Shown: positions 1 to 64,000 of the stretch, piece after piece
Layout: each line of letters opens with the position of its first letter
How positions within the stretch are numbered: position 1 is the first letter of the stretch
Source: Alphaproteobacteria bacterium
GTDB lineage: Bacteria; Pseudomonadota; Alphaproteobacteria; RF32; CAG-239
Length of the DNA stretch: 64,000 nt
NCBI GenBank assembly: GCA_045632645.1
Contig: JAZQXC010000017.1
Span: forward strand, 12,434 to 76,433
Direction: 5' to 3'
Notes under the pieces: generated by a model
What the model saw: only the letters and a program-made list of their open reading frames with translations
Told to the model about the DNA's origin: nothing
The model's database searches: none
Made by a program: the position numbers and the translations under genes

Positions 1-23
1 CATACATCGCTTTCATAATTTTA

Positions 24-545
24 ATGGGGTTTGTGTTTTTTAGGCATGCGAATGACTTGAAAACTTTTATGAGTATAATAGGCACATTGAGCGTAATGAG
101 TCAGAGACTGACGTCTCCATTAAATATTTTTATAATATTATGGAGTAGTCTTTTAATTATAGTTTACACAATATGTTTATTTAAATCCATAAAAGCAATA
201 ATAAACAAAACTTTTTCTTTCTATAGGATAACCATAAAATTCTTAATTATATCTGGTTTCTTCTTACCTGAGATGTTAATTAAATCTTGTATGTGCACAG
301 GAGGGCTACAACATTTAATGTCTCTATATATCTTTCTTCTAATCCCTTTAATTATGACTATAAAAAGTTTAATTAAGAGAAGTAAGAATATAACGTCAAC
401 TTTAAAAATTATAATTAATCGATTTTTAATTGGCGCACTTTTGATAATTTCTGCATACTTTATAGCTGAAATTATTATATTAGCAAATCATGATCCACAT
501 GTTATTACTGATGTGATTACTGTTGAAACATTTGGAGATCAATAA
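24..545 (+). CDS. hypothetical multi-pass membrane protein
   Basis: 173-aa ORF with about 4 hydrophobic segments, followed by a terminator at 562-593; start uncertain near the window edge. Confidence 0.6.
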   Translation: MGFVFFRHANDLKTFMSIIGTLSVMSQRLTSPLNIFIILWSSLLIIVYTICLFKSIKAIINKTFSFYRITIKFLIISGFFLPEMLIKSCMCTGGLQHLMSLYIFLLIPLIMTIKSLIKRSKNITSTLKIIINRFLIGALLIISAYFIAEIIILANHDPHVITDVITVETFGDQ

Positions 546-561
546 TTAGTTGCTCCAACAT

Positions 562-593
562 AAAAAAGGTATCACATTTGTGATACCTTTTTT
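562..593. terminator. bidirectional intrinsic terminator
   Basis: AAAAAAGGTATCACA-T-TGTGATACCTTTTTT-type perfect inverted repeat with A and T tails between convergent ORFs. Confidence 0.85.
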
Positions 594-625
594 ATGCTAA
601 TAACATCTTAAATAATTTAAAATGG

Positions 626-877
626 TTACTTGGCTTTTTTTAATTTTTCTAAAAACTCATCATAAGAAATAGTTGCAATCTTGTCTCTTTTGGTTACCAA
701 CAACGAGCCTCTATGGTGTGAGGATCTTGCTGTATAGTGATAATAAAAAGAAACCTCACTATACTCCTTTGGAGGATGAACTAGATTAGAAATTGTGCAG
801 TGATAGATTTTGTTGCTTTTCTTTTTTCTAAATCTGTTTAGTTCAAAAACTCTCCAATCATAGAAATATTGGCACAA
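626..877 (-). pseudogene. hypothetical protein or 5'-eroded orphan gene fragment
   Basis: 83-aa ORF with TTG start and no RBS; an upstream ATG at 956 opens a short ORF in another frame, consistent with decay. Confidence 0.3.
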
Positions 878-1186
878 CTCAACGATACTTCAACTATAAT
901 TCACAAATGTTATCTAATGCGGTGGAGAACATTAGGGTATAAAATTCAATCGTCATAAAAAAGTAAGGTCGGTTAAATATTGAAGAAAATCTAATCGGGG
1001 AAATTTATAGATTATGTTTCAAAAAAAATAAAATTGTATTCGGGCAAAAGTCTTATTTTTCTTATAAATCCGTTCGGGGAAAATTGTAAAAAATCTTATA
1101 AAAGTGAATAAAGCAAAATGTGTTCTACGTCTTTAATGACGTGTAGGTCTTTCGTGTTGGTTAAAATGGGCTGAAAAAAAGGCATA

Positions 1187-1211
1187 AAAAAAAGCCCTTA
1201 ATTTAAAGGCT
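1187..1211 (-). terminator. terminator of the tRNA-Gly transcript
   Basis: minus strand AGCCTTTAAATTAAGGGCTTTTTTTT hairpin plus U tract. Confidence 0.7.
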
Positions 1212-1392
1212 GGGGAGAGAAATGGAGCAAGCGACGGGAATGAACTCTCTTCGTTCGTTCGCACTGGCGCTCATAAGCCTTTGGCTTATCGCGATACTCT
1301 CGTCTCGCTTTTGCTTGTAGTCAAACCCGCTGTTGCGTGTTCGCTTCCCTTTTTATGTGTGTGGGGAGAGAAATGGAGCAAGCGACGGGAAT
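1211..1392. repeat. 31-bp direct repeat (1211-1241 and 1362-1392) of the tRNA-Gly 3' end plus trailer
   Basis: TGGGGAGAGAAATGGAGCAAGCGACGGGAAT occurs twice, 151 bp apart. Confidence 0.95.
1223..1348 (-). ncRNA. tRNA-linked tRNA-like element (acceptor/T-stem mimic with T-loop insert)
   Basis: minus strand: GGAAGCG-11nt-GCGGG-TTTGA-[80 nt with hairpins]-TT-CCCGT-CGCTTGC-T-CCA. Confidence 0.55.
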
Positions 1393-1447
1393 CGAACCCG
1401 CATGAAAAGCTTGGGAAGCTCTCATTCTACCATTGAATTACGCTTGC
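1374..1447 (-). tRNA. tRNA-Gly (anticodon CCC)
   Basis: 74-nt cloverleaf: GCAAGCG/CGCTTGC acceptor stem, AGAGC-TTCCCAA-GCTTT anticodon arm, GCGGG-TTCGATT-CCCGT T arm, encoded CCA. Confidence 0.97.
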
Positions 1448-1592
1448 GCCATTTAGGAGTTTCATTATGAAGACAATGAACTCTTACCCTACTCTATTGC
1501 TATTATCAAACATTTTTTTTGTTATTTGTGGATAAAAATGTATCTTTTCTTTGGTAAAATGTAAAAAAATTGAACAAAATACAAAAAAAATA

Positions 1593-1621
1593 TTGACTCT
1601 TTTGATTTTATCACATATAAG
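1593..1621 (+). promoter_or_regulatory. sigma70 promoter of rplJL
   Basis: TTGACT-17nt-TATAAG. Confidence 0.6.
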
Positions 1622-1661
1622 CTCTGCTAGATTGAGCTACATTTATATGTATTGCTCATAA

Positions 1662-1752
1662 CTGTCCAAGACCGTAGGTGGTCATGTATTTGATTTTAAG
1701 TGTTTTTGTTTAACTTAACTATCATTTGATCTTAATTTCCTACGCAGACGGA
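1662..1752 (+). promoter_or_regulatory. rplJ (L10) autoregulatory leader
   Basis: CTGTCCAAGACCGTAGGTG ... TTAATTTCCTACGCAGACGG complementary halves matching the proteobacterial L10 leader, upstream of rplJ. Confidence 0.8.
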
Positions 1753-1909
1753 GTAAACAAGATTTCTAATCAATTTTCTCCCCCGGACAGATTTGGTGCC
1801 ACTTTTTGGTAAAAGGTTTCTTTTATCATTGGTGGATGTTGTAAACGATTTTGTGGTTTTTGATTATTATTAATTGAAGATGACAAAGTCATTATTTGGA
1901 GACAAGTAA

Positions 1910-2392
1910 GTGAATCGCGAAGAAAAAACTGAACTCTTAAGCGAAATGAACGAACTTATTTCTGCAGCTGAATCTATTGTGATTTCTCACTACAGAGGTT
2001 TAACTGTTCAAGAAATGGGTGAACTCAGAAATAAAGCTCGTGAACTTGGCTGTGAGTTAAGAGTTACAAAAAACCGTATTACTCGTCTTGCTCTTAAAGG
2101 AACCAAATTTGAAGGTTTAGACGAATTCTTCAAAGGTCCTACAGTTATGGCTTATTCTAGCGACCCAATTTCATCATGTAAATTATGTGTTGAATTTGCT
2201 AAAGCTAATGAAAAGTTCGTAGTTGTTGGCGGTGCTTTGAGTTCTGGTGTATTATCTATGGCTGAAATCGAAAGATTGGCAACAATTCCTTCTATGGACG
2301 AATTGCGTGCGAAAATTATCGGTTTGCTTCAAGCACCTGGTTCAGCATTGGCAAGAGTTACCAAAGCTTACAGCGAAAAAGAAGCTGCTTAA
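1910..2392 (+). CDS. rplJ: 50S ribosomal protein L10 (uL10)
   Basis: HYRGLTV...LRVTKNRITRLA motifs, GGAG RBS, GTG start. Confidence 0.98.
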   Translation: MNREEKTELLSEMNELISAAESIVISHYRGLTVQEMGELRNKARELGCELRVTKNRITRLALKGTKFEGLDEFFKGPTVMAYSSDPISSCKLCVEFAKANEKFVVVGGALSSGVLSMAEIERLATIPSMDELRAKIIGLLQAPGSALARVTKAYSEKEAA

Positions 2393-2545
2393 TATCAAAA
2401 TATTTTGCGCAAATAACTTTTCGCTACGCTTGATAAGAGCAAATTAGTTGTTTTGATATAAAAAGTTGGTTTATTTATCAGGTTTTATATCAAGCGGTAA
2501 AAAAAGTTTTAATAAAAAAGTTTAAATTTTATTTGGAGAAAAAAA

Positions 2546-2914
2546 ATGGCCGATTTAGCCAAATTAGTTGAAGAATTATCAGCATTAACAGTTATGGAAG
2601 CTGCTGATTTATCTAAAATGTTAGAAGAAAAATGGGGCGTTTCTGCTGCTGCAGCTGTAGCTGCTCCAGCTGCTGGTGCTCAAGCTGCTCAAGCTGAAGA
2701 AAAAACAGAATTCGATGTAATTCTTGCTGAAGCTGGCGCTAACAAAATTAACGTTATTAAAGAAATCCGTGGTATCACAGGTTTAGGCTTGAAAGAAGCT
2801 AAAGACTTAGTTGATGGCGCTCCTAAAACTGTTAAAGAAGGCGCTCCAAAGGCTGAAGCTGAAGAAATCAAAGCTAAACTTGAAGCTGCTGGTGCTAAAG
2901 TTGAATTAAAGTAA
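2546..2914 (+). CDS. rplL: 50S ribosomal protein L7/L12 (bL12)
   Basis: [28 protein letters not shown]. Confidence 0.99.
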
Positions 2915-2936
2915 TTTTACTTTATTCTTTCAATAT

Positions 2937-2966
2937 AAAAAAGGAGACCTTTTTAGGTCTCCTTTT
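2937..2966. terminator. intrinsic terminator after rplL
   Basis: AAAAAAGGAGACCT-TTTT-AGGTCTCCTTTT. Confidence 0.85.
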
Positions 2967-2969
2967 CTT

Positions 2970-3281
2970 TTACTTTCTTTGATATCTTCTTATTATTAAT
3001 TTTATATCAATGATAACAATTAATAAAACAACTAAGAAAGTTAGTGTTGTTGCTAAATAAAACATCTTATAGTACAACGCTAAACGTGACAGCAATAAAA
3101 TTATATACCCTTTATAAAGCATATTAAGTTCTATTGGTGCGCCAAGCAGTGATAACACTATTGATAGATGTAAAACTATCCCCATTGCCTCACCTTCTAC
3201 AAAAAATGATATAGCAAACAGAATAAAACTAACAATAAGACAAAGCCTAGAAAGCAAAAAACAAAATAATTTCTTATTCAT
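2970..3281 (-). CDS. small hypothetical membrane protein
   Basis: 103 aa, about 3 hydrophobic segments, basic C-terminus. Confidence 0.6.
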   Translation of the reverse strand: MNKKLFCFLLSRLCLIVSFILFAISFFVEGEAMGIVLHLSIVLSLLGAPIELNMLYKGYIILLLSRLALYYKMFYLATTLTFLVVLLIVIIDIKLIIRRYQRK

Positions 3282-3401
3282 ACTGATATATTTTAATAAT
3301 ACTATTCCTCTAAAAGGGATATAATAAATTTAATATATAATCAAGCACAAAAAAGCGCCAAATCATTATATTGGCGCTTTTGTCTTATTATTTATTTTAG
3401 C

Positions 3402-4256
3402 TTAGATATTGTGCTTTTTTAATACATCAATAGCATTTTGTAATTGATCATCAGTTGTAGCATACAAAGGCATACCATTTAGCACAAGTGTTGGAACACT
3501 TTTTATATTGATATTATTAGCTGTTTCTCTTGTTTTACCTAATAAATCTGTTGTTTCTTTTGAATTATAATCTTTTTGATATTTATCTAGATCTAGTTTC
3601 ATGCTTTCTGCTAGCTCTAATGCTTTTTGTTGACTGATATGTGGTTCTGCCATTAATTTTAGATACATTTCCATAAATTTACCTTGTTTTGATGCTGAAA
3701 TTGCAGCTCTTGCTGAAATTTCTGAATTTTGAGACAAGAAAGCAATTGGTTTAAATACTATCTTTATTTCAGGATTATTCTCTAGCAATCTATGTAAACG
3801 TGGGGCCATTTGCTTACAATATCCACATGAAAAGTCAAAAAATTCAACAAGGGTATATTTTGCATCTTTGTTACCTACATAGATTTCATCGCTATTTATC
3901 TCTTCTATGTATTTACTATATTCATCAGCTTGTTTTAACAATTCTTCTTGATATTTTTTATCTTCATATATTTGAAGAGCACCAACAATTAAGCTTGGAT
4001 TGTTAACAATTACTTCTTTTATTCTTTCTTCTATTTCGGTTAATCTTTGTTCTTTTCTTTCAGATATTTCATCTTTATTTTTTTGATAATCCATAACAGC
4101 ATTATATGCTATTTCTGGATTTTTCTTTAATACAGATGCAATAGCTAAAGCCATTTCCTCTTCTGATGCGTTGTTAAGTATTTGATTACTCTCTGCAACA
4201 TTATAACTTATCATAGTTGATAATATTGTTGCTGCTAATAATTTAATCTTTTTCAT
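3402..4256 (-). CDS. DsbA/ScsC (Com1-like) thiol-disulfide oxidoreductase
   Basis: signal peptide, VEFFDFSCGYCK active site, cis-Pro loop SVPT, two ScsC-like N-terminal helices. Confidence 0.88.
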   Translation of the reverse strand: MKKIKLLAATILSTMISYNVAESNQILNNASEEEMALAIASVLKKNPEIAYNAVMDYQKNKDEISERKEQRLTEIEERIKEVIVNNPSLIVGALQIYEDKKYQEELLKQADEYSKYIEEINSDEIYVGNKDAKYTLVEFFDFSCGYCKQMAPRLHRLLENNPEIKIVFKPIAFLSQNSEISARAAISASKQGKFMEMYLKLMAEPHISQQKALELAESMKLDLDKYQKDYNSKETTDLLGKTRETANNINIKSVPTLVLNGMPLYATTDDQLQNAIDVLKKHNI

Positions 4257-4275
4257 AAAAAACCTCTCTTAAATA

Positions 4276-5145
4276 TTATAAACAAGTATCTTTAGTAAAT
4301 TCGCAAGCACTTAAGTTTTTATCATTCTTATCTGTATAAAGTATGCTTAAATTAATTCCTTCATCTATAAACATTGGTTTAATTTTAGGACACATACTTT
4401 CATTTGCTTTCATGCAAGAATCATTCTTAATGCTTTCAGTTAGAAGCTTCATATCATCATCAGAAAATGTAGAAGAATCTATATCTGCTTTATATACGTA
4501 TGTTACCATTTTATCTTGATATTTTATATCAACCCACTTAGTTATTTCATCAATTTCTTTAGGAAGTGATTTTTTGATAATTGATATCATATCTTGTATT
4601 TCTTTATCTTTCTCATCTTCTTTGGTTAGTTTAGGTTCAACCCTTAATTCTTCTGTAACATTTTCAAAATCTAAAGCTTCTAGTGGAGCTATGTATTCTT
4701 CATCTATACCATCATCTTTTGTAATAACATTTAGTTTTTGAGGCATAACATCTTCTTTTGTGATACTAATATCTTCTATATTGTCTAATTCATCTTCATC
4801 TAAAGAGAAATCTACCATTGACTGCATTATATTTACGCTATCTTTCATACCTGATAAATCTTTTGGCTTATTTTCTTTGGACACCTTTGGTGTTTCTAAA
4901 TCACTATCATCTAATGAGGCATCAATACTATTTTCTTCTATTATATTTTCTCTAATTTTTTTAAACTGATGTCTTAGATATTCTTGTTCATCAACTTTAC
5001 CATCTTTATTATCATCCATACTATTAAACGAAGCTATAAAAACCTCCTTTAATGCGTACATTTGCTCGTCCTTTGTTAAAGCATTAGCCTTAATGCTTGA
5101 TAATGCGAGCATCGAGCATGTGAGCATAAGTATACTTTTTTTCAT
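4276..5145 (-). CDS. secreted EF-hand protein with C-terminal PA3611/AspS-like domain
   Basis: signal peptide MKKSILM..., canonical loop DDNKDGKVDEQE, acidic linker, C-terminal LPKEIDEIT...TYVY with 4 Cys. Confidence 0.6.
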   Translation of the reverse strand: MKKSILMLTCSMLALSSIKANALTKDEQMYALKEVFIASFNSMDDNKDGKVDEQEYLRHQFKKIRENIIEENSIDASLDDSDLETPKVSKENKPKDLSGMKDSVNIMQSMVDFSLDEDELDNIEDISITKEDVMPQKLNVITKDDGIDEEYIAPLEALDFENVTEELRVEPKLTKEDEKDKEIQDMISIIKKSLPKEIDEITKWVDIKYQDKMVTYVYKADIDSSTFSDDDMKLLTESIKNDSCMKANESMCPKIKPMFIDEGINLSILYTDKNDKNLSACEFTKDTCL

Positions 5146-63932: not shown

Positions 63933-63943
63933 AATATAAAATT

Positions 63944-64000
63944 AGCGCATGGGGGTTGAATTTCGCTTCGCTCATTCGCACAGGCGCTCGTGAGCATATG
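63944..64000 (-). repeat. second copy of the tRNA-linked structured element (truncated by window edge)
   Basis: 63957-64000 aligns with 1241-1283 at 34 of 44 columns by hand, with compensatory stem changes. Confidence 0.7.

Follow-up and report, generated by a model that had tools for sequence, protein, structure and literature searches.

Repeat elements that are linked to tRNA genes (TLRs) were described first in 1978 (Egan and Landy, 1978; Rudd, 1999; both as cited in PMC8144298), and the overview given in PMC8144298 treats them as having no known function as of 2021. According to the sections of this source that deal with Escherichia coli K-12, 22 TLRs are present at ten loci, and the last 18–19 bp of each repeat are the same as those with which the tRNA or rRNA upstream of it ends. 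The same sections describe RrA, RrB and RrF, which are encoded behind 5S rRNA between two terminators and are made by read-through. These RNAs bind Hfq and CsrA, through GGA motifs, and it is suggested there that the repeat may direct cutting by RNase E (PMC8144298). The RtT RNA type of repeat was noticed first behind tyrT of E. coli. Rfam has a model for it (RF00391; gathering threshold 45 bits), which gives 133–137 bits on the E. coli units.

Other small elements share some of these properties. REP/REPIN, ERIC and BOX sequences are short, GC-rich, hairpin-forming and multi-copy, are often situated behind terminators, and are patchy between relatives. tRNA-like domains are found in tmRNA, YrlA and viral 3′ ends. 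Repeats of tRNA 3′ ends are also left behind by integrase-driven islands and by their small remnants (Williams, 2002, among others).

The stretch of DNA analysed here (the window) consists of 64,000 nucleotides from an alphaproteobacterial genome, labelled G000, which is 1.59 Mb in size and 98.8% complete, with about 29–35% GC per contig, and which contains 39 tRNAs and one permuted tmRNA. A tRNA-Gly(CCC) gene is present at 1374–1447 (minus strand, as are all features of the locus; ARAGORN, and 63.6 bits with the Rfam tRNA model). Its CCA is gene-encoded (1374–1376), and it is the single tRNA called at the locus by either program. A unit of 151 nt begins 12 nt past this CCA, and its end is an exact 31-nt copy of the last 19 nt of the tRNA plus the trailer, as found by a repeat search. 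Thus copy 1 of the direct repeat, from A58 of the tRNA to CCA with the 12-nt trailer, is at 1362–1392, and copy 2 is at 1211–1241, where it is divided into a tail (1223–1241, A58 to CCA, with the CCA at 1223–1225 and 19/19 identity) and a trailer (1211–1222).

Upstream of the tail, the unit has three further parts. The sequence at 1342–1361 comprises a spacer and, in inverted and decayed form, the tRNA 3′ end; within it, GGAAGCG (1342–1348) pairs with the acceptor 3′ strand at 6/7 positions. This is followed by a hairpin, P2 (1321–1344), with a left arm at 1335–1344, the loop AACA at 1331–1334 and a right arm at 1321–1330. The right arm, GCGGG-TTTGA, is a copy of tRNA positions 49–58, i.e. the T-stem 5′ strand plus TTTGA, and the hairpin is present in the predicted minimum free energy fold of the unit. 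A conserved GC-rich core, delimited by covariation and mutual information, occupies 1242–1320. It contains the junction CTACAAGCAAAAG, hairpin A (1291–1308), hairpin B (ATAAGCC-AAA-GGCTTAT, 1273–1289), the junction GAGCGCCAGTGC (1261–1272), and hairpin D (1242–1260), which adjoins the tail. An earlier note on this DNA, made from the sequence alone, had listed the elements of the locus, and a check of the sequence finds every one of them at the place given.

The tRNA-plus-unit stretch is closed by an intrinsic terminator at 1186–1211, made up of a terminator-like site at 1193–1211 and a T run; this is the sole terminator-like site within 1050–1650. The scan of this region showed no terminator-like or promoter-like site between tRNA-Gly(CCC) and the unit, which makes co-transcription of the two plausible, as judged from the sequence signals. 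Assembled contigs from two bovine-gut sequencing runs match the locus. A 220-nt contig of run X1 (word share 0.08; perhaps a DNA library) covers 1212–1351 with approximately 93% identity, and run X2 (word share 0.06) covers the tRNA part alone, at about 1372–1414. The contigs show neither strand nor ends, and are therefore uninformative on expression. Among the 4227 models of Rfam 15 searched against window positions 1–5000, those of self-cleaving ribozymes included, no family covers the unit at E ≤ 1; the other matches are to tRNA, together with sub-threshold ones that are outside the unit body or of terminator/leader type. The same search of nine other copies of the unit gave no described family, so that the expectation that the element does not belong to a described Rfam family was borne out.

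The unit is not unique in the genome. A BLAST search with the unit against its own genome gives related copies directly behind tRNA-Gly(GCC), tRNA-Pro(TGG) and tRNA-Val(TAC), and a repeat scan of all tRNA tails in this genome adds a copy at tRNA-Pro(CGG). A covariance model, R1, was built from four full own-genome copies, and finds 11 copies in the source genome, several of which are decayed or cut short. One of these is cut by the window end: the 3′ part of a unit behind tRNA-Lys(CTT) is at window positions 63939–64000 (minus strand). The whole unit, at G000:C17:76372-76504 (minus), scores 100.4 bits with R1, and its tail has decayed past the acceptor strand and is without CCA.

Several further arrangements in this genome should be pointed out. 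A partial copy, 99% identical, is outside the window and 3.6 kb downstream of the tRNA-Gly unit (G000:C17:9947-10106); it begins with the tRNA-Gly tail and trailer, stops inside hairpin B, and has no adjoining tRNA. Behind tRNA-Arg(CCT), tandem units of about 90 nt (G000:C15:20742-21080) are tRNA-Arg pseudogenes without the 5′ acceptor strand. The core is absent from them, and they represent a different kind of tRNA-linked repeat. At G000:C7:122200-122542 (minus), past tRNA-His and its terminator, the tail is present as an inverted copy and the T-arm as a direct and uninterrupted one; about 150 nt of AT-rich DNA come next, and then a repeated acceptor strand with trailer and terminator. The layout resembles that of the unit minus its conserved core. 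In addition, a Met-type unit is found 22 kb downstream of tRNA-Met (G000:C3:83173-105831), and a 551-aa reverse-transcriptase open reading frame (Pfam RVT_1, E 4e-9) adjoins this tRNA. The intervening DNA is probably an island that separated tRNA-Met from its unit.

The way in which the unit is assembled from pieces of the tRNA can be seen from copies collected across related genomes. The earlier note had advised a check of whether other matches sit downstream of tRNAs and copy their cognate 3′ ends, and this is what is found. A tail can be recognised and a tRNA is present upstream in 81 units, of which 65 have a tail identical to the last 16 nt of that tRNA; the match is 15/16 in six, 14 in three, 13 in one and 9 or fewer in six. 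The 10 nt that precede the core match tRNA positions 49–58 at 9–10 of 10 positions in 64 of 68 first copies. The possibility that a decayed half of the T-arm also precedes the tail was rejected, as the 10-nt stretch directly before the tail agrees with 49–58 at only 1–4/10, which is chance level. With the 49–58 copy in front of the core and no such match in front of the tail, the core is therefore placed precisely at the boundary of positions 58 and 59. On its left, the direct repeat has a sharp limit at 58|59, whatever the tRNA type; to the right, it extends by a median of 36 nt, with a range of 0–115.

The flank between tRNA and unit also shows regular features. A T run of five or more is present between the tRNA and the unit in 54 of the 68 first copies, and likewise after the unit in 54/68. 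The triplet TGG follows the T run in 32/68, vs 1–17 for other triplets. The inverted copy is decayed, but the flank still agrees with the reverse complement of tRNA 49–76 at 16.0 of 28 positions when the tRNA is the cognate one, and at 13.4 when it is not. The 10-nt arms of P2 are fully paired in 27 of 75 units, paired at 9/10 in another 27 and at 8/10 in 14, and the mean of 8.95 pairs compares with 7.35 for non-cognate controls. The layout is thus direct, inverted, direct. Of its two palindromes, one has its centre in the terminator, and the other is at the position-49 edge. The unit consists of four parts: a decayed inverted tRNA end, a hairpin with 49–58, a GC-rich core, and tRNA positions 59–76.

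The earlier note had proposed from these pieces that the unit folds as a tRNA mimic, i.e. an acceptor/T minihelix ending in CCA that would act as a substrate or decoy for RNase P, the CCA-adding enzyme or GlyRS. There is some basis for the proposal. The tail is faithfully copied with its discriminator and CCA, the 5′ acceptor-like strand of the tRNA-Gly copy pairs at the 6/7 positions noted above, and T-stem complementarity is retained, with 91.6% of cells paired and 5/5 pairs possible in 54/75 units. Covariation in the T stem has no independent weight here, both of its strands being tRNA copies. The acceptor stem, on the other hand, is not conserved as such. The best pairing between the acceptor 3′ strand and the 5′ flank averages 5.62 of 7 positions, which is barely above the 5.48 ± 0.07 for non-cognate controls (z about 2); the corresponding Watson–Crick-only values are 4.57 and 4.33 ± 0.09. 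When units of the source genome are compared with their orthologues in the related genome G014, the tail follows a change in the acceptor of the tRNA, but the 5′ acceptor-like strand does not. Thus, of the expectation that acceptor and T-stem pairing would be preserved in other copies, the acceptor part did not hold, and of the T-stem part it is the complementarity that is kept.

Folding predictions point in the same direction. With ViennaRNA, the T-stem 5′ strand is predicted to pair with its upstream complement in 67/75 units and with the tail in 2/75, the mean pairing probabilities being 0.88 and 0.03, respectively. The acceptor 3′ strand is predicted to be paired with the 5′ flank at p > 0.5 in 26/75 units. 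Furthermore, neither ARAGORN nor the Rfam tRNA model makes a call on the unit. The units have in common with tRNA-like domains the T-arm sequence and the acceptor 3′ strand with CCA, but they differ in having no conserved acceptor stem and in that the T-stem strand is predicted to be in another hairpin. The minihelix did not survive this comparison, and a tRNA mimic is a very improbable explanation of the unit.

The core, in contrast to the flanking pieces, does not derive from the tRNA, and it has a structure of its own. It is approximately 80–95 nt in length, with three covarying hairpins. In an alignment of 77 distinct sequences, 91.5% of cells are paired vs 78.6% in shuffled alignments, and changes on both sides of a pair are seen in 242 cells vs 77; no shuffle attains the observed values. 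Hairpin A is paired in 99.2% of cells and hairpin B in 89.1%. Mutual information, calculated from 102 sequences, recovers hairpins A, B and D. In helices 3–5, which are those not derived from tRNA, there are 111 G.U pairs and two A.C pairs, and the structure therefore belongs to the tRNA-sense strand; the same counts rule out a gene on the reverse strand. A comparison of orthologous units of the source genome and G014 shows one compensatory pair each in hairpins A and B. Matches to R1 have 45–66% GC, well apart from the 29–35% of the source genome's contigs. A hammerhead ribozyme was also considered, since one copy has the motif CUGAUGA. The third position of this motif is essential in hammerheads. 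In the units the sequence is the 3′ strand of hairpin B and the third position varies, and the candidate was rejected.

The family is large. Beyond the 11 own-genome copies, the covariance-model search advised in the earlier note gives matches in 20 of the 24 other genus members analysed and, across the order, in 137 of 151 genomes, which represent 19 of 20 genera. More than 700 matches are distributed over these 137 genomes, with up to 15 matches per genome. Within the order, 136/149 genomes of the same family have matches, compared with 0/1 for the only other family sampled; outside this family, R1 found no copy in 16 genomes, each from a different family; 15 of them belong to the same class and one to the same order. 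A scan of 185,579 species genomes with a 19-letter motif gives at least 121 loci, and among the matches listed nearly all are in gut or rumen metagenome-assembled genomes named ‘Alphaproteobacteria bacterium’. R1 was applied to 80 of these loci and matched 73; those that failed are two from Bradyrhizobium, one each from Nodosilinea and Solibacter, and three others. Viral contigs gave seven pattern matches with the motif, none of which passes R1 or has a tRNA.

A same-strand tRNA is found within 400 nt upstream of 121 of 164 motif sites in the fetched loci and the source genome, and first copies are usually 65–82 nt from the upstream tRNA, with 15 amino-acid specificities represented, both among the matches listed. 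The units are about 130–180 nt long. Identical tandem units occur, and tandem pairs are present in the genomes G020 and G022 and in others. The unit behind tRNA-Gly(CCC) is a copy of a large family of structured repeats, clearly beyond chance, and these repeats are specific to a single family of gut Alphaproteobacteria with small, low-GC genomes. A literature search found no publication on a TLR-type family in Alphaproteobacteria.

Precise empty sites exist. A close relative, G013, lacks the unit at both the Gly-CCC and the Gly-GCC locus, and these sites show exactly what the unit adds. The direct repeat of the unit copies the tRNA 3′ end from the T loop onwards, with a right extent of 36 nt in the median and of up to 115. 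This is the feature by which the unit most resembles the attachment sites of islands, and the unit could be what an integrase-driven island left behind, either an attL/attR site or a remnant that can be mobilised in cis. The evidence from the genomes is against this. The source genome has three tyrosine recombinases (PF00589), two Xer-like proteins on C5 and one island integrase (C11:95844-96335), and all three are on contigs other than that of the tRNA-Gly unit; no tyrosine recombinase is near any own-genome copy. An att remnant does not account for a unit of some 130–180 nt whose internal core is conserved and structured, nor is the inverted arm a feature of island repeats.

A real island in G020 provides a direct comparison. 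It carries an integrase, is inserted in tRNA-Lys(CTT) at an anticodon-side site, and is situated between the tRNA and the units, so that two identical units are still joined to the displaced tRNA end. The units thus remain with their original tRNA end after integration of a real island, and the island uses a different site. An origin as an att remnant is extremely unlikely, and the view of the earlier note that the unit is not a simple attL/attR scar is upheld by the exact empty site and by the location of the recombinases. The source genome itself has a classic 21.6-kb island at tRNA-Lys(TTT) (G000:C11:75450-97240), with a repeat of about 90 nt that begins in the anticodon loop; the C11 integrase mentioned above, a protein of 428 aa, is encoded at the far end of the island.

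How cores are related to each other bears on the question of mobility. Core identity is 0.66 where the anticodons of the two tRNAs agree, 0.65 where the amino acid is shared and 0.60 where it differs. For 44 cores from five genomes, the nearest core is at another tRNA of another genome in 22 cases and at another tRNA of the same genome in 18, the amino acid being shared in six of the 18; in two cases it is at the same tRNA of another genome, and two have mixed labels. Core likeness within a genome is 0.633 vs 0.618 between genomes, an earlier sample having held only five same-genome pairs. The cores are moved or exchanged among tRNA loci while the flanks stay cognate.

The earlier note had offered, as an alternative, a non-autonomous element that targets tRNA T loops. 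Perhaps, then, the unit is an element without a protein of its own, or one mobilised in trans, that inserts at the T-loop position 58|59 of copies of tRNA 3′ halves; the conserved core would then be what a transposase, an integrase or an RNA-based insertion step recognises. A relatedness of cores that tracks neither tRNA type nor genome would be expected of such an element, as would the sharp junction at 58|59 in all tRNA types, and the decayed copies and patchy presence fit as well. A partner enzyme, however, does not appear in the 98.8% complete genome: the Y1 transposase (PF01797) has no match, the IS110 transposase is absent, and TnpB has no match above cut-off. The last two results also dispose of guide-RNA ideas. 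The presence of a reverse transcriptase is inconsistent among the genomes searched, as it is found in the source genome and G020, and not in G022, G008, G014 or G011, and the few pattern matches in viral contigs fail the model. A plain insertion, moreover, leaves three separate cognate flanking pieces unexplained, and core exchange between existing units by gene conversion gives the same tree. Insertion of a mobile element is a possibility, but a rather unlikely one.

A retroelement in particular was considered, in which the TGG arm resembles a primer-binding site and is accompanied by a purine tract. Purines make up 0.66 of the sequence before the tail and 0.62 of the whole core, and four of the five further genomes have no reverse transcriptase, three of these with 10–15 units; the candidate was rejected. 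The units resemble REP/REPIN, ERIC and BOX elements in being short, GC-rich, hairpin-forming, multi-copy and patchy, but differ in that they are tied to tRNA 3′ ends and carry sequence copied from the site. The RAYT/Y1 HUH transposase (PF01797) of REP/REPIN is the same enzyme family that is absent from the source genome. In G014 (G014:C50), a ribosome-binding site and an open reading frame with ERLEFLGD, which we take to be an RNase III signature, come directly after the Gly-CCC unit; the proximity may be a coincidence.

The direct-inverted-direct layout with its two palindromes raises the question of whether the units are functionless by-products, generated by fold-back (template-switch) errors of replication at the terminator and T-arm palindromes, with the core as a passenger of gene conversion. 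The tRNA-His locus, where an inverted and a direct T-arm copy and a distant tail repeat occur without a core, would be in keeping with such errors, as would the tandem pseudo-tRNA units at tRNA-Arg(CCT). The compensatory changes in hairpins of orthologous copies are not readily reconciled with a by-product, and neither are the high GC content in an AT-rich genome, the persistence in 19/20 genera, and the occurrence of the same fine layout in E. coli. An origin of this type is judged to be unlikely.

Of major interest is the comparison with E. coli. Four RtT units of the tyrT/tyrV locus (NC_000913.3:1286700-1287630) were inspected, and their layout is as in the alphaproteobacterial units: an inverted tail piece, a hairpin of 49–58 and its complement, TTCGA, a hairpin core, ..GAGTA|ATCC, and the tail. 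In each of them, tRNA-Tyr 49–58 is present as a direct copy that pairs with an upstream complement, and the core comes right after TTCGA. The covariance model R1 gives 34.7, 13.8, 13.0 and 11.8 bits on these four units, and 4–7 bits on the two tRNAs at the locus. In the reverse direction, RF00391 shows no match at E ≤ 1 on the tRNA-Gly unit and nine other alphaproteobacterial copies, and a core-only profile built from the 102 sequences finds nothing in the E. coli tyrT/tyrV locus. The alphaproteobacterial and E. coli units thus appear, from the arrangement of their sequences, to be of a common kind and design, with cores that have no detectable sequence likeness. The likeness to the E. coli TLRs could reflect a shared way of arising.

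Both groups of units are about 130–180 nt in length, are just downstream of a tRNA on the same strand, and occur singly or in tandem; both end in a copy of 18–19 nt of the 3′ end of the upstream gene, as given for E. coli in the sections of PMC8144298 cited above. The alphaproteobacterial family differs in being far larger, with matches in 137/151 genomes, as many as 15 matches in a single genome and 15 amino-acid specificities among the tRNAs, and in having an inverted arm that originally spans positions 49–76. By the description of RrA, RrB and RrF in PMC8144298, these RNAs are similar in that they lie between two terminators and end in the 3′ end of the upstream stable RNA, but they follow 5S rRNA, whereas the alphaproteobacterial units are behind tRNAs and none was seen behind an rRNA gene.

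With its placement downstream of the tRNA in the same orientation, its identical 3′ tail, and the presence of one to several units per locus, the unit behind tRNA-Gly(CCC) is probably a tRNA-linked repeat of the E. coli RtT kind, in a new and very large alphaproteobacterial family. The earlier note, which had remarked that tRNA-linked repeats are known in other bacteria, had pointed to the right classification. Units of the family consist of pieces of their own tRNA set around the core, in the order inverted 3′ end, loop, 49–58, core and 59–76, the last often continuing through trailer and terminator.

Such a unit would be transcribed together with its tRNA. In view of the T run of five or more that precedes the unit in 54/68 first copies, transcription of most copies would depend on read-through of the first of two terminators, as is described for the E. 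coli RrA/B/F RNAs in the sections of PMC8144298 on these RNAs. The copied tail may let the tRNA 3′-end machinery cut the RNA to a defined end. Units would be lost, gained and multiplied by recombination between direct repeats. The decayed and short copies in the source genome, as well as the patchy presence among close relatives, indicate that no single copy is essential.

A further reading, offered here tentatively and with considerable doubt, is that TLRs are an old element of Alpha- and Gammaproteobacteria, consisting of a core fixed at 58|59 together with an inverted copy. If this is true, the constancy of the junction, together with flanks that are cognate at more than 20 tRNA species and with the absence of a partner enzyme, would suggest either an element that copies itself to new tRNA genes by a templated route independent of protein, or a selected RNA that presents the 3′ tail of the respective tRNA. 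The same detailed design is present in two proteobacterial classes.

For annotation, the family accounts for many ‘extra tRNA ends’ in gut alphaproteobacterial genomes, which can be mistaken for attachment sites of islands. The hundreds of diverged copies suffice to define the conserved structure and to separate the parts copied from tRNA from the others. The nature and origin of TLRs are thereby now open to comparative study, and to experimental study with a cultured member of the family.
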